Positions 16,701 through 34,141 of a DNA stretch of 64,000 nucleotides are shown piece by piece. The notes under the pieces were generated by a model that saw nothing but the letters and a program-made list of their open reading frames with translations, had not been told where the DNA came from and did no database searches. Both the position numbers and the translations under genes were made by a program. Positions within the stretch are counted from its first letter, which is position 1, and each line of letters begins with the position of its first letter. The stretch is from Acutalibacteraceae bacterium (GTDB lineage Bacteria > Bacillota > Clostridia > Oscillospirales > Acutalibacteraceae), in contig JAZQPL010000072.1 in NCBI GenBank assembly GCA_045628495.1, forward strand, positions 41,118 to 105,117. Reading direction: 5' to 3'.

Positions 16701-16832
16701 CTTTACAGTGAAAAAATAAGGTCAACCCAAAAAGAGAGCAGGTATTTTACAAAAGATACTTATTCCGGGTTACCGGCTAAGTATAAAGCGTTTTACGCAA
16801 ATCCGGCAAATTTTAGTAATGGAGATGAAGTC

Positions 16833-17882: not shown

Positions 17883-17923
17883 TTTTCGGTCAAAAGTTTT
17901 ACAAAATAAAGGTGGATACTATT

Positions 17924-18721: not shown

Positions 18722-20269
18722 ATGACAGTAACAGCATTTATTTCAGAGTTCTTAAATCAGTTTTTTGTACAAGGCCTGTTCGGGATTTTCAAAGGAATCG
18801 GCATGGGAATATTCAATATGTTCAATATCCCCAGATATATTGATATATTTAAGAACAATTCAGAAAACTTTACAGCAACAGACTGGATTCTCGCAATTCT
18901 TACAGTAATTGCCACAATAGCTATTCTTGCAGTAATTGTAATTCTTGTTGTTGTTCTTGTTAAAAAATATCTGAGAGTTCGCAAGACTCTTGTTGACCAG
19001 GAAGAACTTCTTAACGAAGTTGCAAACCTTAACAGAGAAATTATCAAGCTTTCATCTGAAAAAGAAAGAATTCTTGCAATGAAAGTTTCTCAGCTTGGCT
19101 TGAAGCCCGGTGAAAGCCCCTTCGTTGAACAGGAAGAAAAAGACGAAGAAGAGAAGAAAGACGACGAAGTAGATATGACTGCAGACGATTACAGCCGTTT
19201 CTACAAATGTACACAGGTTGACCTCGAAATCGGCGATTATGTTGCCCCCGAGTTTGATAACGAAATTACTCTTCCCGAAATTTGCGACAGATTCCGCAAT
19301 TTCGCCTGCTCTCAGTTAGGTCTTTTCTATGAGCCGAAGCTTATCAGACTTTTCCTTTCAGCATTTGCTACAACAAGACTTATTATTTTACAGGGTATTT
19401 CCGGTACAGGTAAAACATCACTTGCTTATGCATGGGGTAAATTCCTTCGTAATCCCGCAACAATCGCATCAGTTCAGCCTTCCTGGCGTGACCGTACTGA
19501 AATTTTCGGTTATTTCAACGAATTTACAAAGCGTGTTAATGAAACAGAAGTTCTCAAGAAAATGTATGAAGCTACATATAAAGAAGAAATATTCATTACT
19601 GTTCTTGACGAAATGAACATTGCCCGTGTTGAGTATTACTTTGCAGAGCTTCTTTCAATTCTTGAAATGCCTACAAGAGATGAATGGGTTGTATCACTTG
19701 TTCCCAGCGTTTGGCCTACAGACCCCAAGCATCTGTTTGACGGAAAGCTCAGACTTCCTGAAAATATGTGGTACATCGGCACAATCAATAACGACGACTC
19801 AACATTCGCCGTATCAGATAAGGTTTATGACCGAGCTATTCCGATAGATATTAACAGTAAAGGTAAATTCTTTGAAGCTCCCTATACAGAATGGCTTCCT
19901 CTCAGCTACAAGCATCTTGAAGAAATGTTCAGAGAATGCCAGGAAATTCATAAGGTTTCAGAAGAAAACCTTCGCAAGCTTGAAGAACTTGATGACTATG
20001 TTATTGAACACTTCCGTCTTGCTTTCGGTAACCGTATTGTTAAGCAGCTTAAAGAATTTGTTCCTGCATATGTTGGATGCGGCGGAACTGAAATTGACGG
20101 TATTGACTTTGTTCTTTGCCATAAGATTCTCCGTAAATTTGAAAGCTTGAATCTTTCATTTATCCGTGACGAAATTGACGGACTTATTACATATCTTAAC
20201 AAACATTTCGGTAAATCAAACATGATGGAATCAAAAGAGTATCTCTTAAGACTCCAGAAGCTTATGTAA
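18722..20269 (+). CDS. membrane-anchored McrB-like AAA+ NTPase
   Basis: Hydrophobic N-terminus with a TM at aa ~54-80 (nt 18881-18961), followed by KKYLRVRK and then a coiled-coil/acidic linker. Walker A is LQGISGTGKTS (nt 19394-19417). Walker B and sensor are ITVLDEMNIARVEYYFAELLSILE (nt 19601 onward). IGTINNDDSTFAVSDKVYDRA matches the McrB-family GT(M/V)N..D.S...D.A..RR pattern. Confidence 0.65.
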   Translation: MTVTAFISEFLNQFFVQGLFGIFKGIGMGIFNMFNIPRYIDIFKNNSENFTATDWILAILTVIATIAILAVIVILVVVLVKKYLRVRKTLVDQEELLNEVANLNREIIKLSSEKERILAMKVSQLGLKPGESPFVEQEEKDEEEKKDDEVDMTADDYSRFYKCTQVDLEIGDYVAPEFDNEITLPEICDRFRNFACSQLGLFYEPKLIRLFLSAFATTRLIILQGISGTGKTSLAYAWGKFLRNPATIASVQPSWRDRTEIFGYFNEFTKRVNETEVLKKMYEATYKEEIFITVLDEMNIARVEYYFAELLSILEMPTRDEWVVSLVPSVWPTDPKHLFDGKLRLPENMWYIGTINNDDSTFAVSDKVYDRAIPIDINSKGKFFEAPYTEWLPLSYKHLEEMFRECQEIHKVSEENLRKLEELDDYVIEHFRLAFGNRIVKQLKEFVPAYVGCGGTEIDGIDFVLCHKILRKFESLNLSFIRDEIDGLITYLNKHFGKSNMMESKEYLLRLQKLM

Positions 20270-20311: not shown

Positions 20312-22471
20312 GTGCAGATGGATAAATCATATCTTGAATTATTTTTAGAATATAAAAACAGCATGGATGCTCTCACAACTGATAATCAGTTCTATGATAA
20401 TATGACTGATATCGTTGAAAGAGGTAAGTCAAATTATTCTTTGTTTAATCGCTATTTTGAGAAGAAAATTGACTTAACATGGGTTGAGGAAATCGAAGCG
20501 TGCATTATTCCGTTAGATAATATCATCCGTGTTCCCCGTAAATTTATTATTCAGGAAGAAGAAATTGTTCCTATTGAAAGAGCAAAGAAAATTACTGCTG
20601 AGTCAGTTCGCCATCTTGCACAGCATACAAATATGATTGCAAAAGTTGAGGGTGACGATGTTACACCCAACGAAATTCTTAATGTTTTCAGAGAAGAAAG
20701 CTTTGAGGTTTATGAAAATCGTTTTGTATTTACACTTATGCAAAACCTTATCAGATTTATTGATGTAAGATATAATGTTCTATTCAGTCTTTCAGATGAT
20801 GAAAATATGGCATCACTGAAAATGGAAAACGAAACATACCGTGGAAATGAAAAAATAACATATAAACTTGAAATTTCCGCTCAGTCAGGCGGTAATGATT
20901 TGGAGGATACCGCAAATATTGACGGTGAAAACGCATCTGCATTCCAGAGAATTGAGCGTATTAAAAAGATTATTAACGAATATGCTCATTCAGGATTTAT
21001 GAAAGAACTTCAAGGCTGCGTTCCCGTTCGTCCTCCGATTATGAGAACAAACGCTATCCAAAAAAATCCGAATTTCAGAGCATGTCTTAAACTGTGGCAG
21101 TTTATTCAGTCATACAGAGATGTCGGTTATGAAATTATCGCAAAAGAATCAAATGAAATGGTCAGCGATGAGTATAAAACAGAGCTTAACCGTATCATTG
21201 CCACAAACTATATGCTTCTTAAAAATAATTCAATATCGGAAGACTCATTGGGCAAGCGTGCTAAGATGAGAAAGCTTAAACCGAAGCTTCTTAAAAGACT
21301 CGCTGAAGAGCTTGTTTTGGATTATGATATGGAAGAGGTTGAGATTAAGCGCATTTTCGTCGATGAAGTTAAAAGAGTTTCCAAGCGTAAACTTGAAGGC
21401 GAAAAGAGAATTAAAGATGCTATTGACAGAGCTATTGCATCTGAAAACGCAAGAAAGAAAGCTATTGAAGATAAAATTAAAGCAAAAATTGCTCATGAAA
21501 AAGAGATGGAACGCCGTCGCATAGAGCGTGAAAAAGCAAGAATCGCAAGAGAGAAAGCTGCTGAGAAAGCTCGCAAAGAGAAAGAAAGAGCAAGACTCAA
21601 AGCTAAGAAAGAAAGAGAACTTGCACTTGCGAAAGAAAAAGCACGCAAAGAAAAAGAAAAGGCACGCCTTGCGAAGGAGAAAGCAGCAAAGCTTGCACAG
21701 ATTGCAAAAGAAAAAGAACAGGCAAGAATTGCTAAAGAAAAAGCCCGCAAAGAAAAAGAGCTGGCTCTCAAGCTTGAAAAAGAACGCAAAGCTAAAGAAA
21801 GAATTCGACTTGCCAAAGAAAAAGCTGCTCAGCTTGAAAGAGAACGCAGGGAAAAGGAAAAAGAAAAAGCCCGCCTTGCCAAAGAGAAAGCTGCTCAGCT
21901 TGAAAGAGAACGCAAGGAAAAGGAAAAAGAAAAAGCCCGCCTTGCCAAAGAGAAAGAAAGAGAGCGTCTTGCAGCTCAGAAAGCAGCTCAGCTTGAAAAA
22001 GAAAAGGCTGCAAGAGAAAGAGCGAAAGAAAAAGAACGCCTTGCTAAAGAGAAAGCTGCGCTTGCAGAAAAAGAAAGAGCTGCTAAAGCTAAGGCAAAAG
22101 AGAAAGAAAGAATTGCCGCTGAAAAAGCAAAACAGCTTGAAAGAGAAAAAATTGCAAAAGAAAAGGCAAGAGAAAAAGAACGCCTTGCTAAGGAAAAAGC
22201 CGCTCTTGCAGAAAAAGAGCGCATAGCTAAGGCAAAGGAAAAGGAAAAAGAAAGAATTGCCAGAGAAAAAGCAAAGCAGATTGAAAAAAATCGAATTGCT
22301 AAAGAAAAAGCAAAGGAAAAAGAACGCCTTGCTAAAGAAAGAGAAAAACAGCGTGAAAAAGAACGCATAGAAAAAGCAAAACAGCGTGAAAAAGATAAAA
22401 TAGCAAGAGAAAAAGCTGCTAAGGCAGCAAAAGCAAATGCTAAGAAATCAAATTCAGCAGAAGAACAGTAA
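20312..22471 (+). CDS. McrC-like N-terminal domain protein lacking a nuclease domain, fused to a long E/K/R-rich helical repeat region
   Basis: The first ~340 aa are globular. The helix FREESFEVYENRFVFTLMQNLIRFI resembles the conserved ..(D/E)T.(E/A)NR(F/I)(I/V)K..L motif I recall from McrC/DUF2357 N-domains. I see no PD-(D/E)xK motif. From aa ~355 to ~710 the sequence is almost only E, K, R and A with some L, I and Q. GTG start is preceded by AAAGGGG. Confidence 0.5.
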   Translation: MQMDKSYLELFLEYKNSMDALTTDNQFYDNMTDIVERGKSNYSLFNRYFEKKIDLTWVEEIEACIIPLDNIIRVPRKFIIQEEEIVPIERAKKITAESVRHLAQHTNMIAKVEGDDVTPNEILNVFREESFEVYENRFVFTLMQNLIRFIDVRYNVLFSLSDDENMASLKMENETYRGNEKITYKLEISAQSGGNDLEDTANIDGENASAFQRIERIKKIINEYAHSGFMKELQGCVPVRPPIMRTNAIQKNPNFRACLKLWQFIQSYRDVGYEIIAKESNEMVSDEYKTELNRIIATNYMLLKNNSISEDSLGKRAKMRKLKPKLLKRLAEELVLDYDMEEVEIKRIFVDEVKRVSKRKLEGEKRIKDAIDRAIASENARKKAIEDKIKAKIAHEKEMERRRIEREKARIAREKAAEKARKEKERARLKAKKERELALAKEKARKEKEKARLAKEKAAKLAQIAKEKEQARIAKEKARKEKELALKLEKERKAKERIRLAKEKAAQLERERREKEKEKARLAKEKAAQLERERKEKEKEKARLAKEKERERLAAQKAAQLEKEKAARERAKEKERLAKEKAALAEKERAAKAKAKEKERIAAEKAKQLEREKIAKEKAREKERLAKEKAALAEKERIAKAKEKEKERIAREKAKQIEKNRIAKEKAKEKERLAKEREKQREKERIEKAKQREKDKIAREKAAKAAKANAKKSNSAEEQ
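21374..22441 (+). repeat. purine-rich coding tandem-repeat tract (E/K/R/A repeats)
   Basis: A 66-bp unit at 21824-21889 is repeated at 21890-21955 with one mismatch (cagg/caag). A ~48-aa unit (AKEKERLAKEKAALAEKER.AKAK.KEKERIA.EKAKQ.E...IAKEK) recurs downstream. Low complexity creates spurious ORFs in other frames and on the opposite strand. Confidence 0.85.
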
Positions 22472-22510: not shown

Positions 22511-22539
22511 AGATTTGAACCGGCGTGGAGGTTATTAAG

Positions 22540-25500
22540 ATGAAGAAAAGATTTATTGAAAGGGTACTGGTATTGATGTTATCAATGGCAGTATTGTTAT
22601 CGTCAACAGGGGCATACTCTGCATTTGCAGTATCTAAAAACGGTTTTATGTCCTTTTCTGCAATTAAATCTTCATCATCTGCTGCAAAAAATGAGCAGGA
22701 GACCACGACTCCTGAGTCTGATTCTGTTGAACCTAATCTTGTAAGCGACGGCGGAACAGTTGAGGCTGTTAAGCTTAACGGAAAAGGTACTGCTGAAAAT
22801 CCTTATATTGTTTCAAATGCAGATGAATTATTTGCAATGCAGAGTGTTGCAAATGATTCAACCTCAGGCGATAAGTATTTTGTTCTTACTAAAGATATAG
22901 ATTTATCCGGTGTCAGCTATTCTGAAATGAATGACAATTCTGTTCTTCCGGGAACAATAGTTTCAGTTGATAAAGCAGTGTGCAATGCTGCTCCTGATGA
23001 AGCTAAATTTATACTTGAAGGCAACAATCATAAGATTTTCGGACTTAATATTACAAATAACGGTTCCTCGGCGGTGGGTATTTTCGGTTATATCAGCCCT
23101 AAATCAGTTATTAAAAATGTTGTATTCGAAGATATCAGTGTAAATGTTTCATACAGCGGTTCTGTTTCTTCATCAGTTATTGCCGTATGCAACAACGGTG
23201 AAATCAGCGGATGCACTGTTAAAAATGTTGCATTGAATATCAGCGCTTCAGCTAACGGCGGCGTTAGTTCCAAGACTGTAGGCAAGCTTAAAATTAAAAA
23301 TTCAACAGGACTTATCGGCAGAAATAACGGTAAAATCTGTGATATGGATATCAGCAAAGTAACTGTTGATATCAGTGCAGGCAAGGATACTATTGCTGTT
23401 GTTTCCGGTATGAATTCCGGTACAATATCAAATATTACAGTAAATAAATCATCTGTTAAGGCTGTTAAATCAGACAATATCGGCGGCGTTGCCGGTAAAA
23501 ACAGCGGTAAAATAGAGTCTGCAACAGTTAACGGAATAAAAATTAAGGTTGACAAAAAGGCAGTTTGCGGCGGTATTGTCGGTGAAAACTCGGGAATAAT
23601 TGATTCTTGTGTTGTTTCCGGCTCCGTTACCGGTTCATCATATTCAGGCGGAATAGCAGGTTATGCCGTTTCGGAAAGCAAGTCAACTGTAAAGAATTGC
23701 TATTCACTTGCAGGTGTTTCAGCTAATAATGAAACAGGTGCAGTTATAGCCGCAGGTAAATCAGTTACAAGCGGTAATGTCTGGTCATCGGATATCAGCG
23801 GTAGAATCATGGCTTATGAAAACGGTTCTGTTGACGGAAAGTTTAACCGTGAAAACAAGCTGATTGTTGTACGCAACGGCCAGAGTGAGATTTTAAGCAA
23901 AGCATCACTTTCAGGAAGCTTTGCAGGTTTAACATATTCTCTTGACACATCAAAGGATATAGCTTTTGACGGCGAAGGAATTACATTCAGTGAAGATGAA
24001 AACAGTATTGTGATTACCGCAGATTCCGCAGACAAAACCGGAAAAATAACATATACATCAAAAGTTTCAGTTCAGGCAGGATGTAACGGATTATCTGAAA
24101 TTGATGTTAAGTTTAATACAGTAGTGCTCACTGTTCCGGAAGGAACTGCAGGCGATGGACTTACAGAAGCATCAGCTCTTGAAATTAAAAACAGTGCAGA
24201 ACTTTCAATGATTAAGTCTGCTCCTTTTGCAAATTATATTCTTTCAAAAGATGTTACAATGTCTGAGTCCTGGGATTCCTCAATTTCATTTACAGGAACA
24301 TTGAACGGCAACGGTAACACAATCAAGGCAAGAAAAAATCTGTTTAAGTTTACTAACGGCAAAGTTTATAACCTTAATGTTGTTCTTTGCGCATCAATAA
24401 AAACTGCTGTGTTCGGCAATGCATATAATGCAAAGTTCTCAAAAGTAAAACTTTCTGCACAAAAGAGTGAAGATGGTTTTATCGGTCTTAAAACTGATAA
24501 GAGTAACACAGCAACATTTATAAATACTGCAAGAGGAAATATAACAATCAGCAACTGCTTTACAAGCGTGCCCGTAAATGTAAACGGCTCAGGACTTAAA
24601 AATATTGCAGGCTTTATTGCTGTGCTTGATACTGATAATGCAGTAATATCATCCAGCGGTTCTCTTACATCAATTACTGTTAAAGACGGTTGTAAGATTT
24701 CATCAAGTGCCGCATTTATCGCATCTGCCGACGGAAATAAGAATGGCAAAATCAATGATTGCTATGCAACACTCTATTCCGATGATGTTAAAAATATTCT
24801 TATTGCATCGGGAGACAGCAGTATTAAAATGACTGATTCAGTTTTCAGTTCATCATCATCAAAAGCTGTTGCCGCTCCGAAAAAATTTGTTAATATAGAA
24901 GGCAAAAAGTGGGCGTTTGAATCAGGCGAATTCGGCTTTGTTTCTGCAGAGGGAAGCGTTGTTTCAATAGCAATCCCCGTTAATGTAATAAAGGGCGCAA
25001 GTGCGGATGATTTCAAAGTAATGTTTGATTCGGAAGTGCTTAAGGTGAATTCCGAAAAGCTGACAGTTAAAGACAATGTTCTTAATATTCCCGTTGAGGC
25101 GGCAAAGCCCGGAGTTACAATTAAGAACAGTGCACTTGTTGTTACACATAAGGGAACGGGTCTCAGAGCAGAAATAAGTCTTTCAAACGGACTTGAAAAA
25201 GATAAAGACGGTAACTATATAATTAACTGCGGAGCAGATTTCCTGTTTATTAACAATGACTTTGACAATTTCTGTGATAAAAGCTTTATCCTTTCCGGAA
25301 ATATTGATATGTCAGGCATTGATTTTTCAACAATCGGCGGCGCTTCCGGTAAATTTACCGGAAAGCTGGACGGTAACGGATATACCGTTAAAGGTCTTAA
25401 AATCAACGGAACTGCTAAAGCAGGATTATTCGGAACTGTTGACGGTGCAAAAATAGTTAATATTTACTTTGAAGATGCGGTTGTTAATGCATCAAATGAT

Positions 25501-28500
25501 TACGCAGGTGTGCTTGCCGCTCAGATTACGGGAAATACAACAATTAAAGCGGTAAACTTCAAAAACTGCAGTGTAATCAGCACCGGTAATTATGCAGGTA
25601 TTGCAGCCGGCGAAACAGACGGCATAAAACTTTACGGAATTTCAGTGGAAAATTCATCTGTTAAGGCTCTTAATTATGCCGGATTTGTTGTAGGAAAAGC
25701 TGAAAATTCAGAAATTAAAAACATAAGTGCCAAAAATGTTAAAGCATCCGGCGAAAACAATATCGGACTTTTCGGCTGCACGGAAAATTCAAAGCTTGAA
25801 AAAATAGCTGTTAACAACGGCATTGTATCAGGCGGTAAATTTGTCGGAGGAATTTCAGGCTCGGCAGAAGAATCAGAAATATCAAATGTTAAAGTAAACG
25901 GTACAACGGTCAGCGCGGCTGCGGATGTTATGGCTTCTGCTCCTGTTGCAGGCGGTGTATGCGGTTTCTTAAGCGGAAAGCTCAACGGAGCAGTTGTTAA
26001 GTCACTTGAAGTGAAATCATCCGGCAGTTCTGCTGTTGCCGGCGGTGTTGCAGGTATAACAGAAAATGCCGAAATCAGCAACGCTGAGGTATATGGTGAT
26101 GTTAAAGTTTCAGCTTATGTTGTCGGCGGTATAATCGGCGAAGCTGAAAATAATACATCAGTTTATAATTCAAAATCACTTGCAGCTGTTTGTGGAAGCG
26201 ATACACAGTTAAGAGTTGTAACAGGCGCAGGCGGAGTTATCGGCCGTGTAAAGGCAGACGATTTTGCAACAGTTAAAATCAGCAAGGTTAATGTTTCTGG
26301 TAAAATTACCGCTGTTGATTCTGTGGGCGGAATTATCGGTTCGGTTATTTCCGAAAAAGCAGACGGTGTAAGCGTTAAAGATTGTGTATGTGCCGCAGAG
26401 ATAGTTGTTACATCAGATAACGGAATGAAAATATCCGGCTGCATAATAGGCAATGTAACAGAGCTTAAATCAGATGCTCTGGAAAAATCAGTTGAAGGTA
26501 TCGTATATTCTTCATACGGTTCAGGCCTTAATGCAATCGGCACAGCAGATGTTAAATCAGGATATTACGATGCTGATAAAGCTGTTAAAGCTGTGGTACC
26601 TGATTTAATTAAAACAAGAGCGGAAAATAAAATATCTGTTTCAACAGGAGATATTAAAAAATACGGTTTTGTATTTGACAGTGATAAAGGTTGGCAGTCT
26701 GAATCGGCAAAGAGAATCGTTGTTGTTGATTCTTCAGAGAATCAGGTTAAAATCAAGGCAGTAAGATCAGGCAATGTCGGAATAGCTGCGGAGTACAAAC
26801 TTTCTGCCGATAAAGATATAGTAATTAAGGTTCACTTTAATGTTAAATCTGAAATAGCAACAACTCTCAAAGGCGAAGGAACAAAATCAAATCCTTATGT
26901 AATCAATAATGCTTTTGATTTGGAAAATGTATCATATTATTCAGGCGAGAACAGTTGCTTTGTTTTGAATAACGATATTAAGTTCAGCGCAGATGCCTTT
27001 AAGTTCAGCGGAGATTTTTATAACGAAGGATGCGGATTTACTCCCATTGGTTCGAAAGAAAATCCGTTTAACGGAAAGTTTGACGGTAACGGTCATAAAA
27101 TAAGCGGACTGTGTGTTAACAGTGAAGACGGTGCGCTTTTCGGATATGCTTCGGATGCTGAAATTAAAAATGTTACTGTTGAAAAAGCAACAATAACAGG
27201 AAACAATTCTGCGGCGGCAGTAGTTGCCCGTCTTGTGGATTCTGAAATCACCAATGTATTTGTTACAGGATGCAATGTTGTTGCAACTGATGTTGAAGGA
27301 AGTGCTTCTGCGGTTGTTGCTTATGCAAAAAACAGTAAAATTGAAAATGTTAATGTAGAATCTGCAGAAATTACAGCTTGTCCTGCTGAATTTAAGGAAA
27401 AAAATGCAAGCGCAGGTGCAGTTTGTGCAAGAGTAACTGATGTTACTGTAAATAAAGTTACAGTTAACGGCGCAGATGTTGTTTCGAACGGTTTTGCAGG
27501 CGGATTTATAGGATATTGCGATAATGCGATTATCAGCAATTCAAAAACAGTTGCTGAAATCAAGGGCAATATTGCAGGCGCAGTTTCAGCGGATACTGCA
27601 GGAAAGCTTACAGCAGAAAATATTGTTGCAGGCGGAACGGTTTACGGTCATGAACTTGCGGCAGGTCTTTCAGCAAAATCTGATGCTCCTGTTGTATGTA
27701 AAAATGTAATTATCTCCGCTAAAGTAAAAGGTGAAGGCGTTTCCGCTGTTGTTACGGCGAAGGCAGATGAATCAATATTTACTGATTCTGCCGATAGTGA
27801 AGTTGTTCTTGAAAACATTGTTTATTCAAGTTATCAGAATAACCTCAAACCTTTCGGAGATAAAAAAATAAATATGTTCCAGAGCGCTGATTATGTCGGA
27901 AATGTTTACGATGCGAATGTTGCAGAAGTAAAAGAGGGCAATAGCCTTGTAATCGGAAAAGACAAGACAGATGTTTTCGGTTCAATTAAATCCGAATTCG
28001 ATTTCAGCAAGTTTGTTTGTGAAAATATTTACAGTGTTCCCGAAGGACTTGTGAAATATAATAAAGCAGATAATACGGTTACTGCAGCGGGCACAAATGT
28101 TGACGGCGCTCAGCTTGTTATCAGATTTGATAACGGCATTGAAATAGCAGTACCTATGGTAAGCGTTGTCGGACTTACAGGCAACGGTTCTGATGTTTCC
28201 CCGTTTGTTGTTAATTCTGAAGACACACTTAAACTTCTCAAGGTATATCCTGAATCAAACTTTAAGATGTCAGGTGATGTTGAACTTAAAAATGTCTGGA
28301 CTCCGGTTGAAAACTTCAGCGGAAAATTTGACGGAAACGGATACACAATATCAGGCCTTAATATTAAAGCGGACAATGCAGGTTTATTTAATACTGTTTC
28401 AGGAAAAGCGGTTATTAAGAATATATCCTTTACAGACGCAGTTATTGAAGGTAAAGCTTCAGCAGGTGTTCTTGCGGCAAATGTTTCGGAAGATGCGCAG

Positions 28501-30564
28501 ATAAGCGGCGTAAGTATAGGAGCATCAAGTGTTAAAGCAGATGAATATGCCGGTGCGGTTGCCGGAAATATTCAGTCAACAAATTCTGCAATCACATTAT
28601 GTTCGGTAACCAGCTGTGAAATTTCAGCAGATTATGCGGCAGGAATTGTCGGAATGGTTTCGGGCAAAGCGAGTGTAATAAGCTGTGAAGTAGAATCTTC
28701 TGAAATAAAAGGTGCTTTTGCGGCAGGTGCTGTTGCAGGATTGGCAAGTGCAGAGAAGTTTGAAGTTTTATCATGCAGCACTTCGGCTGATGTAACCGCT
28801 GAAAATGCAGGTGCTCTGATAGGCATAGAAGAAAAGAATGCCGTTATTGACAAATGCGCAACAAACGGTTTGGTTGCAGGTAAATATTCAGAGGGCGGCG
28901 TAATTGGTATTTCTGATGATACAGTAAGTATTAAAAATACAAAATCCTTTGCTTCTCTTTCAGGCAAAGCAAAACACAGCGCTGCATTGATTGGTATTTT
29001 TGCAGTTAAGCCTGAAGATAACGAAGCTTTCTCGGATTCATTCAGCTCAAATACTGTTTCTGGAGAGTTTGACGAGTTTGAACCGTCGGTTATGAAATAT
29101 CAGAATTTCGTTCCTGCAAACCGGGAAGAAATAAAGCCGCAGCTTAACGGTGAAGGCACAAAGGATAATCCGTACATTATTTCCTCAGCAAAGGATTTTG
29201 CTGAAATTCCGGATTCTTCAACAGCTTATTTCGAATTGGCTGATGATATTAAACTTTCAGCAAGCGATTACGGCGTTTCATACGATAAGAGCGGTAAAGC
29301 AGTTTACGGGGTTTTCAACAACGGATATAAACCGATTAAGAATTTTGCAGGTGTATTTGACGGAAAGGGTCATGTAATCAGCGGATTGTATATTGATTCA
29401 GAGTCTGATTATGTAGGTTTATTTGCAAATATCACTGCATCAGGTGTTGTTAAAAACCTTCATGTAGAAATTCTTGATAAGAGCGAAGGGCTCGGCTTTG
29501 ATTCCGTAACAGGCAGAAATTATGTTGGCGGTATTGCAGGTTACTGTGATTCGGTTAACGGTATTGAAAACTGCTCGGTTGTCGGCGGAAGCATAAACGG
29601 CAACAATACAGTCGGCGGAATAGCAGGCGGAATAGCAGGTTCCGAAATAATAAATTCAGTTGCGATTACTGAAATCAACGGCCAGAATAAATCAGGCGGT
29701 ATTGCAGGTACAACCACAGGAGAGTGTATTATTAAGAATTGCGCAGTATTGTGTGATGTTAATGCCGCAGGCGGAACTCTGGTTGGTGTTAATACAGGAA
29801 CGCTTTCCCTTACAGATGTATTTGCAAACGGTTGTTCATACGGTTTGGGAGCAGTTGCAGTAGAAACAAATAACGGAACAATAAATGCTCAGAATGTTCT
29901 TGTTTCAGGTGAGAACGATGCAGATAAATCATCTGTTCTTAAAGCTCAGAAAGCAGAGAATGTTTATTGCGACAGAACCTTGCTCAGAGCTTACGATGAT
30001 AATATCAAGCCTATGACAACAGAGACTCTTACTTCGTCAAAGCCTGACGGACTTGAAAGTTGGACTCAGGTTAAAGGAAGATATCCTGTTCCGGTTATGG
30101 CAGACAGTTATGCTAACGAAAAAGCAGCCCTTGCCGCTGTTCCCGGTGAAGCTAAACCTGTTGAAAAGGCAACCGGTAATGTTTCAGTAAGCTATAAGCT
30201 TTCCAACAAATCAGACGATGCAACATTGAATAATCAGGTTATCGGAATTCTTATGAAATCTGTTAACGGCAAGAAAATTGTAACTGAAGATTTCTTTACA
30301 AATTGCAGTTCTGATGAAGTTAAGTTAAATAAACTTCTTGTTACAACAGGAGGATTCTATATAGATTCTTCCTTGCCCCAGGGATTTAAAATTCAGGTTT
30401 CTGCAAAGGATTCTTACGGCAACAAGCTTGCAGTTAAAGATGCAGGAAGCGAAGGGCTTTATGTTGAATCAGGAAGAGCAGATAATGTAACTCTTTCAAT
30501 CGAAATTGTTAATACAGACATTCCATGGGGAGCTTACTCCCTGTGGGAGAGTCTTGCAAGATAA
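22540..30564 (+). CDS. giant (2674 aa) secreted GLUG-motif / beta-helix repeat protein, putative adhesin or fibre-associated protein
   Basis: GGAGG lies 8 nt before ATG 22540. Signal peptide is MKKRFIERVLVLMLSMAVLLSSTGAYSAFAVS. Six modules open with G.G(T/S)..(N/S)P(Y/F).(I/V)....(E/D/T/F)L, at about nt 22774, 24137, 25201, 26866, 28174 and 29143. Each continues with F(S/T/N/A)G.(F/L)DGNG(Y/H/N).I.GL and ..GLFG. Long runs of GG(I/V)(A/I/V)G units follow, as in IgA1-protease-type GLUG regions. No LPxTG, SLH, dockerin or C-terminal TM is present. Confidence 0.8.
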   Translation: MKKRFIERVLVLMLSMAVLLSSTGAYSAFAVSKNGFMSFSAIKSSSSAAKNEQETTTPESDSVEPNLVSDGGTVEAVKLNGKGTAENPYIVSNADELFAMQSVANDSTSGDKYFVLTKDIDLSGVSYSEMNDNSVLPGTIVSVDKAVCNAAPDEAKFILEGNNHKIFGLNITNNGSSAVGIFGYISPKSVIKNVVFEDISVNVSYSGSVSSSVIAVCNNGEISGCTVKNVALNISASANGGVSSKTVGKLKIKNSTGLIGRNNGKICDMDISKVTVDISAGKDTIAVVSGMNSGTISNITVNKSSVKAVKSDNIGGVAGKNSGKIESATVNGIKIKVDKKAVCGGIVGENSGIIDSCVVSGSVTGSSYSGGIAGYAVSESKSTVKNCYSLAGVSANNETGAVIAAGKSVTSGNVWSSDISGRIMAYENGSVDGKFNRENKLIVVRNGQSEILSKASLSGSFAGLTYSLDTSKDIAFDGEGITFSEDENSIVITADSADKTGKITYTSKVSVQAGCNGLSEIDVKFNTVVLTVPEGTAGDGLTEASALEIKNSAELSMIKSAPFANYILSKDVTMSESWDSSISFTGTLNGNGNTIKARKNLFKFTNGKVYNLNVVLCASIKTAVFGNAYNAKFSKVKLSAQKSEDGFIGLKTDKSNTATFINTARGNITISNCFTSVPVNVNGSGLKNIAGFIAVLDTDNAVISSSGSLTSITVKDGCKISSSAAFIASADGNKNGKINDCYATLYSDDVKNILIASGDSSIKMTDSVFSSSSSKAVAAPKKFVNIEGKKWAFESGEFGFVSAEGSVVSIAIPVNVIKGASADDFKVMFDSEVLKVNSEKLTVKDNVLNIPVEAAKPGVTIKNSALVVTHKGTGLRAEISLSNGLEKDKDGNYIINCGADFLFINNDFDNFCDKSFILSGNIDMSGIDFSTIGGASGKFTGKLDGNGYTVKGLKINGTAKAGLFGTVDGAKIVNIYFEDAVVNASNDYAGVLAAQITGNTTIKAVNFKNCSVISTGNYAGIAAGETDGIKLYGISVENSSVKALNYAGFVVGKAENSEIKNISAKNVKASGENNIGLFGCTENSKLEKIAVNNGIVSGGKFVGGISGSAEESEISNVKVNGTTVSAAADVMASAPVAGGVCGFLSGKLNGAVVKSLEVKSSGSSAVAGGVAGITENAEISNAEVYGDVKVSAYVVGGIIGEAENNTSVYNSKSLAAVCGSDTQLRVVTGAGGVIGRVKADDFATVKISKVNVSGKITAVDSVGGIIGSVISEKADGVSVKDCVCAAEIVVTSDNGMKISGCIIGNVTELKSDALEKSVEGIVYSSYGSGLNAIGTADVKSGYYDADKAVKAVVPDLIKTRAENKISVSTGDIKKYGFVFDSDKGWQSESAKRIVVVDSSENQVKIKAVRSGNVGIAAEYKLSADKDIVIKVHFNVKSEIATTLKGEGTKSNPYVINNAFDLENVSYYSGENSCFVLNNDIKFSADAFKFSGDFYNEGCGFTPIGSKENPFNGKFDGNGHKISGLCVNSEDGALFGYASDAEIKNVTVEKATITGNNSAAAVVARLVDSEITNVFVTGCNVVATDVEGSASAVVAYAKNSKIENVNVESAEITACPAEFKEKNASAGAVCARVTDVTVNKVTVNGADVVSNGFAGGFIGYCDNAIISNSKTVAEIKGNIAGAVSADTAGKLTAENIVAGGTVYGHELAAGLSAKSDAPVVCKNVIISAKVKGEGVSAVVTAKADESIFTDSADSEVVLENIVYSSYQNNLKPFGDKKINMFQSADYVGNVYDANVAEVKEGNSLVIGKDKTDVFGSIKSEFDFSKFVCENIYSVPEGLVKYNKADNTVTAAGTNVDGAQLVIRFDNGIEIAVPMVSVVGLTGNGSDVSPFVVNSEDTLKLLKVYPESNFKMSGDVELKNVWTPVENFSGKFDGNGYTISGLNIKADNAGLFNTVSGKAVIKNISFTDAVIEGKASAGVLAANVSEDAQISGVSIGASSVKADEYAGAVAGNIQSTNSAITLCSVTSCEISADYAAGIVGMVSGKASVISCEVESSEIKGAFAAGAVAGLASAEKFEVLSCSTSADVTAENAGALIGIEEKNAVIDKCATNGLVAGKYSEGGVIGISDDTVSIKNTKSFASLSGKAKHSAALIGIFAVKPEDNEAFSDSFSSNTVSGEFDEFEPSVMKYQNFVPANREEIKPQLNGEGTKDNPYIISSAKDFAEIPDSSTAYFELADDIKLSASDYGVSYDKSGKAVYGVFNNGYKPIKNFAGVFDGKGHVISGLYIDSESDYVGLFANITASGVVKNLHVEILDKSEGLGFDSVTGRNYVGGIAGYCDSVNGIENCSVVGGSINGNNTVGGIAGGIAGSEIINSVAITEINGQNKSGGIAGTTTGECIIKNCAVLCDVNAAGGTLVGVNTGTLSLTDVFANGCSYGLGAVAVETNNGTINAQNVLVSGENDADKSSVLKAQKAENVYCDRTLLRAYDDNIKPMTTETLTSSKPDGLESWTQVKGRYPVPVMADSYANEKAALAAVPGEAKPVEKATGNVSVSYKLSNKSDDATLNNQVIGILMKSVNGKKIVTEDFFTNCSSDEVKLNKLLVTTGGFYIDSSLPQGFKIQVSAKDSYGNKLAVKDAGSEGLYVESGRADNVTLSIEIVNTDIPWGAYSLWESLAR

Positions 30565-30594: not shown

Positions 30595-31170
30595 ATGAAA
30601 ATCAATTTTAAACCGGTTAAAAATATAATATTGCTCATAGCTTCGGCCCTCACTTTGGTGGCTGTCACTTTTGCGTGGTATTCATTAAGTAAAAATGTCG
30701 GTAATTTTCAGCTTGATTCTGATGTTTCAGGTTCAACACTTTCTGTTAATTACTTTGTTTCTTCTGACGGCGGCAAAAATTATTCAAAGCTTATCGGCGA
30801 TATTTCAATGAATAATGTTGCCGAAGGTCAGGTTGAGTATTACAGAATGGATGTAAAAACATTCAAAGATAAACCGGTGAAGCTTATCATGAGCTTTGAA
30901 GGACTGACTTCGAACAACATCAGTTCTCATGTATATTTTGATTATACTCTCAAGCGTAAGGACACGGGCGTAGTGCTCAGCGAAGCTCAAAAGCTTAAAA
31001 TGTCTGATTATGTTTCAAATAATGTTTTTGCATTTGATGTTTCTTCGTTTCAGAGTTCCGGCGTTAATGAATATGTAATTGATTATAATGTATATGTTGT
31101 TTCAGACGGAGAAAGTATATCCGGTTCATCTTCTTTGGGAGAAGTTAAAATTACCGGTCAGCAGGTATAA
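30595..31170 (+). CDS. small secreted protein with SipW-type signal peptide (putative minor fibre subunit 1)
   Basis: N-terminus MKINFKPVKNIILLIASALTLVAVTFAWYSLSKN. The ~160-aa mature part looks beta-rich (VEYYRMDVKTFKDKPVKLIMSFEG). Confidence 0.55.
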   Translation: MKINFKPVKNIILLIASALTLVAVTFAWYSLSKNVGNFQLDSDVSGSTLSVNYFVSSDGGKNYSKLIGDISMNNVAEGQVEYYRMDVKTFKDKPVKLIMSFEGLTSNNISSHVYFDYTLKRKDTGVVLSEAQKLKMSDYVSNNVFAFDVSSFQSSGVNEYVIDYNVYVVSDGESISGSSSLGEVKITGQQV

Positions 31171-31175
31171 CTGAT

Positions 31176-31823
31176 ATGAAAAAAAAGCCTGAAAAAGAAG
31201 TAAATCCAAAGGTTGAAAAAATCAAGAATATAATTAAAAGAATTTTGTCTGTTATTGCAGCTGTTTCTTTCGTTTTGGGACTTGTAATTTTTATTTCGGT
31301 TTTAAGAGCTAATAACGGTGAAGTGCCGAATATATTCGGTTTCAGTGTTATGAGAGTACAGACAGGAAGTATGGAACCGGAGCTGAGAGTCGGAAGCATT
31401 GTAATAACAAGGCATGTTCCTCAGGAAGAAATTTCCGTAGGAGACATTATAAGCTTTTACTCTATTGATCCGGGATTGAATAATCAGGTGGAAACTCACA
31501 GAATTGTGGAAGAGCATTATGTCGGTAAGGAAAGAGAGTACATTACAAAAGGTGATGCAAACCAGGCGGATGACAGTTATCCTGTTATTTACAGAAATGT
31601 AATAGGTAAGGTTATCGGGAATTTGGGAGTTGCATCCGGCTCAGTAATAGGTATTCTTCAGAACAAGAATGTTATTTTATTTTTAATTATTATACCGCTG
31701 GTATTTATTACTTTTTCTGAAGCGGTAAATCTTGTAAATCTGGTTATAGAAAGCAGAAAAACAGCGAAGGAAGAAAATTCAGATGAATCCGAAAATGAAA
31801 AGAAAAACAAAAGTTCTGATTAG
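31176..31823 (+). CDS. signal peptidase I, SipW type, paralog 2
   Basis: VQTGSMEPELRVGSIVI, VETHRIVEE and TKGDANQADD, with N- and C-terminal TMs and an acidic tail. Confidence 0.75.
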   Translation: MKKKPEKEVNPKVEKIKNIIKRILSVIAAVSFVLGLVIFISVLRANNGEVPNIFGFSVMRVQTGSMEPELRVGSIVITRHVPQEEISVGDIISFYSIDPGLNNQVETHRIVEEHYVGKEREYITKGDANQADDSYPVIYRNVIGKVIGNLGVASGSVIGILQNKNVILFLIIIPLVFITFSEAVNLVNLVIESRKTAKEENSDESENEKKNKSSD

Positions 31824-32292
31824 TTCAGTTTTAATCTGTATTCTTTCTTTTTTGCTGATGATAATATATATACCTAAAATTATGGGTTATCAATCGTTTT
31901 ATATTCAGTCAGGCAGTATGTCACCGTCTATTCCCAAGGGAAGCTATGTTTTTGTAAAAAGAGCAGAGTTTGAAAAAATAAGTGTCGGTGATGTGGTTAC
32001 TTTCAGGAACAACGAAGAAACAGAATTTTTCACTCATCGGGTAGTTGATATTGATGCTACCAACAAAATGTTTACAACTAAAGGCGATGCGAATAAAGAA
32101 AACGACCCTTCGGAAACGAGCTACTATTTTGCAGTAGGAAGGGTGGATTTTTCTATACCGGTTGTAGGCTATATTGCCGAGTTTTTTAATAAAACAGTAG
32201 GTAAGGTTGTTTTAGCAAGTGTATATATCGCATGGATTGCGATTGAGATAGAATTTATCGTTATGAAGCGAAAAGCTCCTCAGGAGGATTAG
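31783..32292 (+). CDS. signal peptidase I, SipW type, paralog 3
   Basis: IQSGSMSPSIPKGSYVFV, FFTHRVVDI and TKGDANKEND. It overlaps the previous gene by 41 nt (alternative ATG at 31795). Confidence 0.75.
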   Translation: MNPKMKRKTKVLISSVLICILSFLLMIIYIPKIMGYQSFYIQSGSMSPSIPKGSYVFVKRAEFEKISVGDVVTFRNNEETEFFTHRVVDIDATNKMFTTKGDANKENDPSETSYYFAVGRVDFSIPVVGYIAEFFNKTVGKVVLASVYIAWIAIEIEFIVMKRKAPQED

Positions 32293-32293
32293 T

Positions 32294-32959
32294 ATGAAGA
32301 AAAGGATTATTGCCGTTATAGCATCTCTTGCAGTGGTTATCGGACTTATGTCAAGCCAAAGCTCATATGCGTGGTTTGTAACATCAGTTAAGAGAGCGCA
32401 AAATATAAATATTGCCGTTGTTAATTACGATAGCGAAACTGAACTGCTCGGCACGGATGAGGCAGATTTTTACGGCAGAGCGTGTATTCTTCCGGGGCAG
32501 AATCTTGTTCTGGTTAATGATAAAGACGCAAAGCTGACAATGAACAATAATTCTTCTATTGATACTCAGATAAGAGTAAAAATTGAATATACAAGTTATT
32601 CCTCAGGTTCTGCAAAAACGGTTACATATTCAGGCAGCGGGGAAGATGACCTTGTTGTTGAGTTCGTAAATCCGTCACAGTGGCTTCCTTATGATAACGG
32701 AATGGACGGAACATATTTCTATTATGTCGGACCGGATAATAAATCCGCAAAGTTAACTGATATTGATAATGTGTATTCAATAACACCCTCAGTTCCAAGT
32801 GTTGATATTGTAAAATCCGTTTCGTACAGAGAAAATATTGATACCTCACTTTACACGGGCAACGAAGTAACTGTTAATATTATTTTTGAAGCAAAACAGG
32901 CAGATTATGTAGGCTGGAGCGCATTAGGTCAGTATCAGGTTAATTCGGGTATCAACTAA
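32294..32959 (+). CDS. small secreted protein with SipW-type signal peptide (putative minor fibre subunit 2)
   Basis: GGAGG RBS. N-terminus is MKKRIIAVIASLAVVIGLMSSQSSYAWFVTSVK. It starts 1 nt after the stop of paralog-3 peptidase. Confidence 0.55.
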   Translation: MKKRIIAVIASLAVVIGLMSSQSSYAWFVTSVKRAQNINIAVVNYDSETELLGTDEADFYGRACILPGQNLVLVNDKDAKLTMNNNSSIDTQIRVKIEYTSYSSGSAKTVTYSGSGEDDLVVEFVNPSQWLPYDNGMDGTYFYYVGPDNKSAKLTDIDNVYSITPSVPSVDIVKSVSYRENIDTSLYTGNEVTVNIIFEAKQADYVGWSALGQYQVNSGIN

Positions 32960-32962
32960 GTT

Positions 32963-33484
32963 ATGAAGATTAAACCGTTAAATGTTTTATTTAATATTTT
33001 AGCAATAGTAACTGTTATTTCAGTTTGCTTTGTGGGATTCAATGTGATAAACAAAGCAAAAGGTTATTCTGTTGTTACAGACAGTATGACTCCGGTTTAT
33101 AACAGAGGAGATGTTGTTTTTGTTAAGAAAACGGATTTTAATTCTCTTAAAGCAGGGGATATTGTCACGGTAAGATTTTATGACGAAAGCGGGTATTTTA
33201 CTCACAGAATAACAGAAATTGATTACAACGCGGGAATGTTCAGAACAAAAGGCGATGCAAACGAAAACGAAGACCCGCAGCCTTCCGAAAAAGAGCAGAT
33301 TGTCGGCAAGGTGTGGTACAGTGTTCCGCTTTTGGGATATATTTCAATATTCATTTCATCAATGAATTTAATAAAAATCAGTGTGATATTGGCAATAGTT
33401 GTAATCATACTTGTTACGGCAACAACTATTATTTCAAAATCTAAAAAATCTAAAACGAGAGGTGACAGCAATGAACAGTGTTAA
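32963..33484 (+). CDS. signal peptidase I, SipW type, paralog 4
   Basis: VVTDSMTPVYNRGDVVFV, YFTHRITEI and TKGDANENED, with N- and C-terminal TMs. Confidence 0.75.
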   Translation: MKIKPLNVLFNILAIVTVISVCFVGFNVINKAKGYSVVTDSMTPVYNRGDVVFVKKTDFNSLKAGDIVTVRFYDESGYFTHRITEIDYNAGMFRTKGDANENEDPQPSEKEQIVGKVWYSVPLLGYISIFISSMNLIKISVILAIVVIILVTATTIISKSKKSKTRGDSNEQC

Positions 33485-34118: not shown

Positions 34119-34141
34119 GTTTAAGGGCAGGGTTGATTGAT

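Follow-up and report, generated by a model that had tools for sequence, protein, structure and literature searches.

A giant multimodular beta-helix protein genetically locked to a SipW-type gene cluster of gut Acutalibacteraceae, with a new C-terminal module and a plausible place on a surface fiber

Surface fibers built from SipW-cleaved proteins with TasA-type signal peptides are emerging as a class that is widespread in bacteria and archaea. In the SipW-TasA/TapA system of Bacillus subtilis and the SipW-BsaA/B/C system of Clostridium perfringens, archaeal-type peptidase genes lie beside genes for small secreted beta-rich proteins, the signal peptide junction carries aromatic P1′/P2′ residues (TWA↓AF in TasA), and an accessory large protein (BsaC, TapA) occurs without sortase-type anchoring (PMC11580942); the locus described here shares these features, with TFA↓WF at the junctions of its small proteins. 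The dependence of TasA on SipW is attributed to the aromatic P2′ residue (PMC10269814). TasA/BsaA-family operons often adjoin adhesin-like genes and carry several paralogs (PMC11580942), and DSC filaments require cap proteins (PMC11580942; PMC9715654). The locus described here bears on how such fibers carry adhesins and become capped and anchored without a sortase or usher. Some secreted beta-helical adhesins, such as EtpA and CdrA, are carried on a different appendage or matrix. No account of the system reported below emerged from literature searches for GLUG with SipW or TasA, or for SipW with Oscillospirales. The system is a conserved case in abundant uncultured gut Clostridia in which an adhesin-like giant is genetically locked to a multisubunit, multipeptidase cluster.

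In the window (the whole 64,000-nt stretch of DNA analyzed), an open reading frame at 22540 (ATG) to 30564 on the + strand encodes a giant of 2,674 aa, with an in-frame GTG further 5′ at 22525. ATG 22540 is the true start because a GGAGG sequence lies 5′ of it, orthologs begin MKKR or MKRR in agreement with it, and an identical 2,674-aa protein is already recorded in an NCBI assembly. GTG 22525 was rejected as the start since it overlaps the Shine-Dalgarno sequence. The giant is a real, unannotated secreted protein of uncultured gut Clostridia, and the whole protein gave no match to PDB sequences by phmmer or to NCBIfam. It has a recognizable architecture with assignable fold classes, lacks known anchors, and has a distinctive conservation pattern and a fixed synteny (Table 1). 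Identity among relatives is 48% for the whole giant, 75% for the signal peptide, and 72% for the C-terminal tail; as these are its two best-conserved segments, the ends of the protein are under the strongest conservation.

Table 1. Features of the giant and its gene cluster, with window coordinates (↓, signal peptide junction)
Feature	Coordinates	Strand	Residues and description
EAL-domain gene	13847..14596	+	Head of cluster
Membrane-anchored paralog of major subunits	14615..15388	+	TM segment, no TFAW motif, C-terminal W.EGxDxxCxN
Two ~315-aa "major" proteins (block 15556..17774)	15556..16509 and 16833..17774	+	SSTFA↓WF signal peptides
SipW/archaeal-type signal peptidase I, first of four	17912..18676	+	TIGR02228, 60.8 bits versus cut-off of 51.85
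Membrane-anchored McrB-like AAA+ protein	18722..20269	+	Upstream of giant
719-aa partner of McrB-like protein	20312..22471	+	KE-rich coil; upstream of giant
Ribosome-binding site GGAGG	22528..22532	+	7 nt before ATG 22540
Signal peptide	22540..22629	+	aa 1-30, MKKRFIERVLVLMLSMAVLLSSTGAYSAFA↓VS
N-terminal linker	22630..22779	+	aa 31-80; Ser/Thr-rich, poorly conserved (36% identity, lowest of all regions)
Module 1	22780..24150	+	aa 81-537; cap GKGTAENPYIV, GLUG-type beta-helix, beta-rich spacer
Module 2, most divergent	24151..25200	+	aa 538-887; cap GDGLTEASALEI
Module 3	25201..26871	+	aa 888-1444; degenerate cap
Module 4	26872..28179	+	aa 1445-1880; cap GEGTKSNPYVI
Module 5	28180..29148	+	aa 1881-2203; cap GNGSDVSPFVV
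Module 6 beta-helix	29149..29979	+	aa 2204-2480; cap GEGTKDNPYII
Helical and disordered linker	29980..30174	+	aa 2481-2545; AF2 model
Ig-like beta-sandwich, 113 aa	30175..30513	+	aa 2546-2658; AF2 model and fold search
C-terminal tail and stop codon	30514..30564	+	aa 2659-2674; NTDIPWGAYSLWESLAR-type
Downstream block: four small TFAW-type proteins, three SipW-type peptidases	30595..34744	+	In order: 191-aa TFAWY protein, two SipW-type peptidases, 221-aa SYAWF protein, SipW-type peptidase, ~214-aa TTAWFY protein, ~200-aa TLAMF protein
Two conserved membrane proteins (272 aa, 172 aa)	34766..36092	+	Closing cluster

The giant lies centrally in a ~22-kb cluster of gut Acutalibacteraceae and occupied the same slot in every locus examined. 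Loci were reached from the giant itself, from 10 GTDB species genomes (scanned with an alignment of closer relatives), from the major subunit, and from a distant 5,000-aa branch of giants. Cluster order was kept even where the outer flanks differed. In all full-length loci examined, the McrB-like ATPase pair immediately preceded the giant, and four TIGR02228-positive SipW-type peptidase genes lay within 10 kb of the giant in every locus examined; in the window, all four cluster peptidases score above the TIGR02228 cut-off, and the first minor subunit gene starts 30 nt downstream of the giant. Seven TFAW(F/Y)-type proteins were counted, comprising two ~315-aa major proteins, four minor proteins of ~190 to 220 aa, and the membrane-anchored paralog, which has its C-terminal W.EGxDxxCxN motif in common with the major subunits. 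The giant had originally been linked to TFAW-type proteins and SipW-type peptidases; that link held in every related locus examined, searched from either side, and is much stronger than the original prediction could know. A promoter and terminator scan gave counts no higher than those of shuffled sequences and no operon boundaries. No + strand terminator was found between genes, and the one weak match fell inside the giant open reading frame.

Most of the giant is made up of six modules. Caps quoted earlier at aa 81, 538, 1445, 1881, and 2204 were confirmed exactly, as was a degenerate cap near aa 888 (nt 25201). An F.G.(F/L)DGNG(Y/H).I.GL motif had been proposed for every module; modules 3 to 6 have it in clean form, whereas module 2 has a variant (FTGTLNGNGNTIKA) and module 1 a degenerate version (FILEGNNHKIFGL). 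The "dozens" of GG(I/V)AG-type turns held for a relaxed GG(I/V)xG-type motif (37 seen versus 4.0 expected from shuffles, many spaced ~26 to 35 residues apart) but not for the strict motif (17 seen versus 0.7 expected). Modules were 24 to 32% identical to one another, most pairs giving E values of 5e-5 to 2e-13; three weaker pairs, involving module 2 or M3-M6, gave 0.004 to 3, and the sole clear pairwise match of module 2 was module 5 (E, 5e-5). No shuffled module scored above 30 bits. By these sequence comparisons, the homology of the modules and the enrichment of turn motifs are far above chance.

The proposed likeness to GLUG regions and the N-domain of IgA1 proteases was supported by both Pfam and fold matches. 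Peptidase_M26_N (PF05342) matched the whole giant at 37.7 bits (cut-off, 27.7), with the best match of the whole-protein scan at aa 936 to 1006 in module 3, and modules 3, 4, and 5 each align to profile positions 180 to 250. The GLUG motif PF07581 exceeded its cut-off only in module 3 (23.7 versus 20.5 bits) and was subthreshold in modules 1 and 6. Module 6, the best-conserved module (59% identity), was modeled by AF2 as a right-handed beta-helix with pLDDT above 90, and its top PDB match was IgA1 protease 7uvl_P (E, 3e-3; 337 columns), with 7uvk also matched, at E values that are modest. No catalytic domain was detected in the giant, HExxH is absent from its whole length, and Peptidase_M26_C gave no match. 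An IgA1/Zmp protease identity was rejected for want of a catalytic domain or HExxH.

Tandem beta-helices might alternatively form a polysaccharide-active enzyme with glycan lyase or hydrolase modules, comparable to pectate lyases or phage tailspikes, whose substrates would be dietary glycans, host glycans, or the matrix of the cell itself. The host family, Acutalibacteraceae of humans, horses, and deer, inhabits fiber-rich guts, a setting that suits such an activity; structural matches extend to pectate lyase A (1jrg; E, 8e-3), tailspikes, and pectin methylesterase, and module 2 has a weak Pectate_lyase_5 match (E, 0.56). However, the best fold match is a noncatalytic N-domain, the tailspike matches have probabilities below 0.25, all CAZy-type Pfam families fall below threshold in the giant, and a conserved acidic catalytic signature was not found. 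Relatives, moreover, differ in their number of modules, from ~4 to over 7, variation typical of stalk or adhesin repeats. An enzymatic role is improbable.

The original prediction placed a SipW-like cleavage site at YSA27↓FA, mimicking the TFA↓WF junction found in the small proteins through a small-aromatic-small-A/aromatic pattern. The giant itself does read GAYSA↓FA, the cluster contains four SipW genes, and the profiles of its signal peptide and of the major-subunit signal peptides align over a common MKK..R/h-region/SST layout (hhalign probability, 65%). Across 56 relatives, however, the proposed -1 position is Ser in 27, Val in 23, Ala in 5, and Thr in 1, so the pattern is peculiar to the giant's own sequence; Val is disfavored at -1 by the -3/-1 rule of signal peptides. 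Three residues downstream, A30 is Ala in 56/56, with Ser, Val, Ala, or Thr at -3. T23 and G24 are equally invariant, and S22 is present in 55/56. A30 is followed by T, V, E, or A and then by N, Q, or T, and an aromatic occurs only as Tyr at P1′ in 2/56. The NCBIfam SipW-cognate signal models matched none of the proteins scanned. Given an invariant small-x-Ala at AFA30↓VS with no aromatic after it apart from these two cases, the conserved site is canonical and does not demand SipW; the predicted cleavage site is after small-x-Ala30, and processing at YSA27 is highly improbable. The predicted mature N-terminal peptide is VSKNGFMSFSAIK for cleavage after A30 and FAVSK for cleavage after A27. Mean entropy is 0.98 bit in the signal peptide and 2.64 bit just after it. 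Since the signal peptide is abnormally conserved and its layout is common to the major subunits, the giant may still undergo dedicated processing. The giant was rejected as a lipoprotein because its signal peptide has no Cys.

The same conservation could be read as N-terminal anchoring, with an uncleaved or slowly cleaved signal peptide serving as a membrane signal-anchor, the Ser/Thr-rich linker spanning the wall, and the distal C-terminal module nucleating or holding the fiber in a TapA-like manner. No segment is better conserved than the signal peptide, the Ser/Thr-rich spacer follows it directly, where wall-spanning regions adjoin anchors, and C. perfringens BsaA oligomers are membrane anchored rather than wall anchored (PMC11580942). 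Against this, Ala at -1 with a small residue at -3 in all 56 relatives, and AxA after STG in the signal peptides of the 5,000-aa branch, are the signature of selection for cleavage. The h-region also runs for only ~12 to 14 residues before the STG break, and a dedicated membrane-anchored paralog of the subunits is already part of the cluster. We consider N-terminal anchoring a poor prospect.

The absence of a known anchor, as first proposed, was upheld. The [LS]Px[TS]G motif is absent from the whole giant, Kyte-Doolittle analysis found no TM-like segment beyond the signal peptide, and Pfam SLH, CWB2, choline-binding, LysM, and dockerin models gave no match in seven segments of the giant at E values up to 5.

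The C terminus had been described as a unique ~180-aa domain. It is unique, and it consists of three pieces rather than one: a helical linker, a 113-aa Ig-like sandwich, and an amphipathic tail. The domain is present in a single copy, and the giant ends ...IPWGAYSLWESLAR. In the AF2 model of aa 2204 to 2674 (pLDDT, 89), the beta-helix is followed by the linker, the sandwich, and a terminal helix, the tail being modeled at low confidence. The consensus of the tail is PWG..S.W.SL, with W and G invariant and with amphipathic-helix character. The best fold matches of the sandwich were the Gram-positive pilin domains of GAS T-antigen, FctB, Spy0128, PilB, PitB, RrgB, and Cpa; matches of the C-terminal domain were weak overall (E, 3e-3 to 0.2; TM at most 0.40), as were those of the sandwich with pilin domains (E, 6e-3 to 0.2; TMt, 0.2 to 0.4). 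CnaB-type pilin domains are recognized by an isopeptide Lys-Asn/Asp triad, judged here from sequence conservation; the sandwich has one near-invariant Lys (K2573), and no partner Asn, Asp, or Glu is conserved family-wide.

In 1.84 billion proteins (1.84e9), the C-terminal module had 43 representatives, located at or a few residues from the C terminus. All full-length carriers were giants of 2,000 to 5,700 aa that also have the LLSSTG signal peptide. A word-indexed homolog search from the C terminus of a 5,186-aa relative returned one 135-aa fragment, whose contig supplied the locus examined for the 5,000-aa branch. Comparison with each small subunit detected no sequence similarity, and a diverged TasA-like or subunit-like module was rejected because profile similarity to the small subunits was lacking. 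Comparison within the giant likewise rejected a further copy of the intermodule spacers. A donor beta-strand role for the tail was rejected on its amphipathic moment (0.37 to 0.53 as helix versus 0.06 to 0.32 as strand); since the tail is of low confidence and helical rather than strand-like, classical donor-strand capping by the tail is unlikely. The C-terminal domain is a new, unannotated domain family deserving a database entry.

These properties bear on a reading in which the giant belongs to the matrix, free or loosely bound; it would be coregulated with the fiber genes but simply secreted, acting as a soluble or matrix-embedded beta-helix scaffold or cell-cell glue without specific fiber docking, its C-terminal module serving folding or secretion quality or glycan binding. 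In its favor, none of the known anchors is present, the Trp-rich, amphipathic tail could bind carbohydrate or lipid, and the C-terminal domain has no homology to the subunits. However, were the module a generic binder of wall or glycan, other surface proteins should carry it as well, and it is found solely at the C terminus of a single family of giants; the strict gene order beside the first minor subunit also suggests more than coregulation. We regard this reading as rather unlikely.

The aromatic residue after the signal peptide junction is present in the small neighbors (TFA↓WF). Profile searches of these proteins against the PDB found no TasA or related fiber protein, the best matches being unrelated (E, 0.19 to 0.76), and Pfam Peptidase_M73 matched 1 of 16 proteins (E, 0.015). 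A model of the 317-aa neighbor has a jelly-roll-like fold, for which Foldseek gave no confident match and did not place TasA in the top 50. hhalign of the neighbors with TasA gave a probability of 0.2 and aligned only the cleavage junction. Because neither sequence nor fold confirmed TasA-family membership, that the neighbors form a fiber is itself something we infer.

Together, the data describe a Sec-exported surface protein whose signal peptide is predicted to be removed after small-x-Ala30. The exposed protein comprises a floppy Ser/Thr-rich linker, six divergent, capped beta-helices (several with a beta-rich spacer), a helical linker, and a putative docking module made of the 113-aa Ig-like, pilin-like sandwich and the 13- to 16-aa amphipathic PWG..S.W.SL tail. 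The small proteins of the cluster may build a SipW-dependent surface fiber or matrix, of which the giant would be the adhesive cargo, held by noncovalent protein-protein docking of its C-terminal module in place of a wall anchor. The docking partner would most plausibly be the minor subunit encoded 30 nt downstream, an arrangement resembling a two-part tip adhesin with a binding part and a pilin-like part. Fiber display through the C terminus is plausible; the full proposal, an adhesive cargo docked through a private C-terminal module without a wall anchor, is offered tentatively, at a little short of an even chance. From the fold class only do we infer adhesion, and the docking partner and the fiber of the neighbors carry the same conditional status.

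A more elaborate and rather doubtful version holds that the LLSSTG signal peptide and the Ig-like/PWG..S.W.SL end define an undescribed, sortase-independent loading system, in which one of the four paralogous SipW-type peptidases would recognize the giant and the C-terminal module would plug it, as a FimH-like tip adhesin, onto a multisubunit SipW-dependent fiber, with the membrane McrB-like ATPase possibly powering or gating the process. If real, this would amount to an appendage of a Gram-positive bacterium made up of major, minor, anchor, and giant-adhesin subunits. At either end of the giant lies a short, sharply conserved signal that is open to mutational testing. If docking is true, a new C-terminal sorting or docking module would be defined, with a way into how these gut bacteria adhere to particles, to mucus, or to one another; should docking prove wrong, the giant would nonetheless cleanly exemplify a C-terminal domain family that is new and unannotated.

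Compared with the SipW operons described at the outset, this cluster stands apart in its four peptidases, seven TFAW proteins, EAL gene, and McrB-like ATPase pair. The accessory protein differs as well, being a beta-helix giant of 2,674 aa that lacks a VWA domain, and the small proteins have no homology to TasA detectable by sequence or Foldseek. The streptococcal and Gemella IgA1 proteases and Zmp (7uvl, 7uvk) share with the giant the cap motif, F.G.FDGNG.I.GL, GG(I/V)xG rungs, and the right-handed beta-helix. Unlike them, the giant lacks the M26 catalytic domain, HExxH, LPxTG, and a Zmp-type N-terminal anchor, and it has six tandem helices where they have one, a C-terminal module of its own, and other genomic surroundings.

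Two-domain tip adhesins of chaperone-usher pili (FimH/PapG) and of sortase pili (Cpa/Spy0125, RrgA, PitA) have the same layout, with a large binding part and, C-terminal to it, a pilin-like Ig domain through which the adhesin is joined to the shaft; Cpa and PitA are among the best fold matches of the giant's sandwich, though weak, with TM at most 0.40. Unlike them, the giant has no LPxTG, pilin motif, sortase, usher, or chaperone, and the likeness is functional ("works like") rather than one of membership. EtpA of enterotoxigenic E. coli (ETEC), found on flagellar tips, and CdrA of Pseudomonas aeruginosa are likewise large beta-helix adhesins without an anchor of their own, retained via another surface structure. 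CdrA is regulated by c-di-GMP, and the giant's cluster is headed by a c-di-GMP-related gene (EAL). EtpA and CdrA are Gram-negative two-partner-secretion substrates with one long helix, whereas the giant is a Sec-exported, modular protein of a Gram-positive lineage.

The ORF of the giant beta-helix protein is real and runs on the + strand from 22525 (GTG) or 22540 (ATG) to 30564. GTG 22525 was rejected as the start since it overlaps a GGAGG site. ATG 22540 is the start codon because this site lies 7 nt upstream of it, because orthologues open with MKKR or MKRR, and because the identical 2,674-aa product is recorded in an NCBI assembly (protein P0001). The caps said to open the modules were found at aa 81, 538, 1445, 1881, and 2204, with the degenerate one near aa 888 (nt 25201). 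The signature expected to follow each cap, F.G.(F/L)DGNG(Y/H).I.GL, was clean in modules 3 to 6; module 2 has a variant of it and module 1 a degenerate form. Module pairs shared 24 to 32% identity, most with E values of 5e-5 to 2e-13 (module 2 was the outlier), while shuffled modules scored at most 30 bits; by this comparison, the modules are true paralogues. GG(I/V)xG-type turns, many spaced ~26 to 35 residues apart, occurred 17 times in strict form (0.7 expected) and 37 times in relaxed form (4.0 expected). The proposed GLUG/IgA1-protease architecture was borne out: Peptidase_M26_N scored 37.7 bits (Pfam cut-off, 27.7), and IgA1 protease was the first Foldseek match in the PDB for the helix part (7uvl_P, E 3e-3; also 7uvk). 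The Pfam Glug motif passed its cut-off in module 3 only. Module count differs among relatives, and the helix architecture itself is already known.

The protein carries six helices resembling the IgA1-protease N domain, with no catalytic domain detected; a search across its length for HExxH found none, and a glycan-active enzyme with this architecture is improbable. As originally predicted, it has no known anchor: there is no [LS]PxTG motif and no wall-binding Pfam family, and the signal peptide is the sole hydrophobic segment. This signal peptide is of the Sec type and has a canonical cleavage site that the family conserves; its retention as an N-terminal signal-anchor seems correspondingly doubtful, about as poor a prospect as an enzyme.

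The family consensus of the signal peptide is MKRRxxERVxVLxLSIAVLLSSTGIxSxLA. Its STG motif is invariant or nearly so (G in 56 of 56 sequences, T in 55), the Ala ten residues past the first S/T of [ST]STG (six past its Gly) is present in all 56, and the -3 residue of this site is S, V, A, or T. In the window's giant, the site reads AFA30|VSK, a canonical small-x-Ala junction. Mean entropy was 0.98 bit over the signal peptide versus 2.64 bits over the next 39 residues, a level of conservation that is unusual for a signal peptide. The original prediction placed a possible SipW-type cleavage at YSA27|FA. An aromatic P2' residue is reported to make TasA need SipW and not a LepB-type enzyme (PMC10269814), and the small neighbours, unlike the giant, have the junctions TFA|WF, TFA|WY, SYA|WF, TTA|WF, and TLA|MF. 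The SipW-mimic argument fails for the giant because the residue at -1 of YSA27|FA is Ala in only 5 of 56 relatives (Ser in 27, Val in 23, Thr in 1) and the residues that follow are non-aromatic in the family; we consider this cleavage highly improbable. Signal-peptide profiles of the giant and the ~315-aa subunits aligned with an hhalign probability of 65% (pairwise E 6e-5) and have a common layout (MKK..R, h-region, SST), a kinship that is only suggestive because of compositional bias.

To describe the C-terminal region, aa 2204 to 2674 were modelled with AF2 from a 29-sequence alignment (mean pLDDT 89, pTM 0.71). The "~180-aa C-terminal domain" of the original prediction did not hold as one unit and is, in the model, a composite of linker, sandwich, and tail. 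With Foldseek, the sandwich consistently matched pilin domains of Gram-positive bacteria in the PDB (GAS T-antigens, FctB, Spy0128, PilB, PitB, RrgB, and the tip adhesins Cpa and PitA), with E values of 6e-3 to 0.2 and probabilities mostly >0.9, yet with TM scores of 0.2 to 0.4. We tentatively place this modelled core in the Ig-like, pilin-like fold class. It occurs in single copy within the giant, and profile comparison with the small proteins encoded nearby found no similarity. The tail is amphipathic as a helix (moment 0.37 to 0.53, versus 0.06 to 0.32 as a strand). When 1.84 billion representatives were scanned in full with HMMER, the C-terminal profile matched only 43 proteins, in all of them at, or a few residues from, the C terminus. 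The giant ends in a private module, Ig-like in the model, with a conserved amphipathic tail.

A word-indexed search returned ~55 relatives of full length, none of them named and all from Clostridia MAGs: ~25 with 38 to 53% identity (2,650 to 3,315 aa) and ~30 with ~30% identity (2,013 to 2,428 aa). Genome matches were Acutalibacteraceae MAGs of human, horse, and roe-deer gut. A further branch among the C-terminal-profile matches consists of 5,100- to 5,700-aa giants (P0257, P0261, and P0265-P0277 of the representative library), which keep the PWGV...W.SL tail and, in most, an LLSSTG-type signal peptide, while the middle region is unrelated in detail to that of the window's giant. The two termini therefore act as signatures of the family. 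Tails of this branch run a few residues longer (e.g., ...WDSLIENLVQ), and the final residue is not Arg/Lys.

Features of the cluster and of the giant. Nucleotide positions are those of the window; identities are against 13 orthologues.
Order	Feature	Position	Strand	Remark
1	EAL gene	13847-14596
2	Membrane-anchored paralogue, 257 aa	14615-15388
3	Two ~315-aa TFAWF proteins	15556-16509, 16833-17774
4	SipW-type peptidase	17912-18676
5	Membrane McrB-like AAA+	18722-20269
6	~700-aa coiled-coil protein	20312-22471		719 aa here
7	Giant	22540-30564	+	overall identity 0.48
8	~190-aa TFAWY protein
9	SipW-type peptidase	31176-31823
10	SipW-type peptidase	31783-32292
11	~220-aa protein
12	SipW-type peptidase	32963-33484
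13	~215-aa protein
14	~200-aa protein
15	Two membrane proteins
	Fer4_16 iron-sulfur protein	36115-36789		housekeeping, downstream
	RNase Y	37097-38824		housekeeping, downstream
	LepA	41471-43282		housekeeping, downstream
	Giant, signal peptide			identity 0.75
	Giant, N-terminal linker			identity 0.36
	Giant, module 6	up to ~aa 2480		capped right-handed beta-helix (AF2 model); identity 0.59
	Giant, linker	aa 2481-2545		helical, then disordered (AF2 model)
	Giant, C-terminal domain	aa 2546-2658		nine-stranded beta-sandwich (AF2 model)
	Giant, tail	aa 2659-2674		short terminal helix, low confidence (AF2 model); identity 0.72

The synteny of the giant with this cluster is obligate. Four routes led to loci with this gene order: it was kept at the loci of three giants (one 30% identical, with different outer flanks), in 10 of 10 GTDB species genomes, at two loci of major-subunit homologues (one with a single ~315-aa subunit), and in the downstream half of the cluster seen on L017, a contig of the 5,000-aa branch. 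Outer flanks vary among relatives, and the cluster stays intact. The first minor subunit begins a few tens of bases past the giant's stop in every case (30 nt in the window, with a GAGGG site). On L017, the giant's C terminus is split into two ORFs (13-1485 and 1510-1917) owing to a frameshift, a stop codon, or misassembly, and TFAW/SipW genes still follow. The McrB-like/719-aa pair adjoins the giant upstream in every full-length syntenic locus; given this constant place, it seems to belong to the system and not to be an inserted restriction module. The McrB-like protein is membrane anchored (NF008457, E 1.5e-7; weak AAA_5 match), and the last ~350 aa of its partner form a low-complexity coil rich in KE (AKEKA/REKE). 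The EAL-domain gene (c-di-GMP phosphodiesterase-type; E 1.8e-46) is first in the cluster in all full-length loci, a hint that control of the appendage may be linked to c-di-GMP.

All four candidate peptidases exceeded the cut-off (51.85) of TIGR02228, the archaeal-type signal peptidase I model (60.8, 89.3, 94.5, and 88.5 bits), and matched the SipW model, each below its equivalog cut-off. In each, the Ser (GSM.P/DSM.P) and His (THR) motifs are retained, and two of the genes overlap by 41 nt. The neighbours are best read as a putative SipW-dependent fibre, and comparisons with TasA gave no firm likeness. Subunit profiles found neither TasA nor a related fibre protein among PDB sequences, Peptidase_M73 matched only 1 of 16 proteins (E 0.015), and hhalign against TasA aligned the cleavage junction alone, not significantly. 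The AF2 model of the 317-aa subunit (pLDDT 84.6, pTM 0.82) is a jelly-roll-like sandwich whose first 38 residues, the signal peptide plus ~8 mature residues, are disordered. Foldseek gave it no confident PDB neighbour; the Sulfolobus acidocaldarius thread subunit 7pnb ranked 6 (probability 0.21), and TasA lay outside the top 50. The BsaA superfamily is extremely divergent in sequence, and several paralogues plus adhesin-like genes often lie within one of its operons (PMC11580942). The 257-aa protein shares a C-terminal W.EGxDxxCxN...F.I motif with the ~315-aa subunits (hhalign probability 69%) and has a cytoplasmic Lys-rich N terminus and one TM segment; it lacks a TFAW site. We regard it as a candidate membrane base subunit, in agreement with BsaA, which is reported to be membrane anchored. 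In the major subunits, a W291-E293-G294-D296-D298-C299 block (numbering of the first subunit), invariant in 42 homologues, resembles a metal-binding loop and has one conserved Cys. Among archaeal relatives of TasA-type fibres, some are reported to assemble under the drive of calcium.

The literature and libraries searched held no description of the C-terminal module, of the giant's conserved signal peptide, or of such a giant fixed inside a four-peptidase, seven-subunit cluster, and these three features are apparently new. A free matrix protein would fit the missing anchor; set beside the private C-terminal module and the fixed cluster place, we regard it as unlikely. We infer, at a little short of an even call, that the giant is carried as an adhesive by the fibre or matrix of the cluster and that its C-terminal module would retain it by docking onto a cluster-encoded protein. 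A filament that assembles through donor-strand complementation requires a cap or tip subunit (PMC9715654). In layout, the giant parallels two-part tip adhesins, which combine a binding part with a pilin-like part, as well as EtpA and CdrA, anchor-less beta-helix adhesins that ride other structures.
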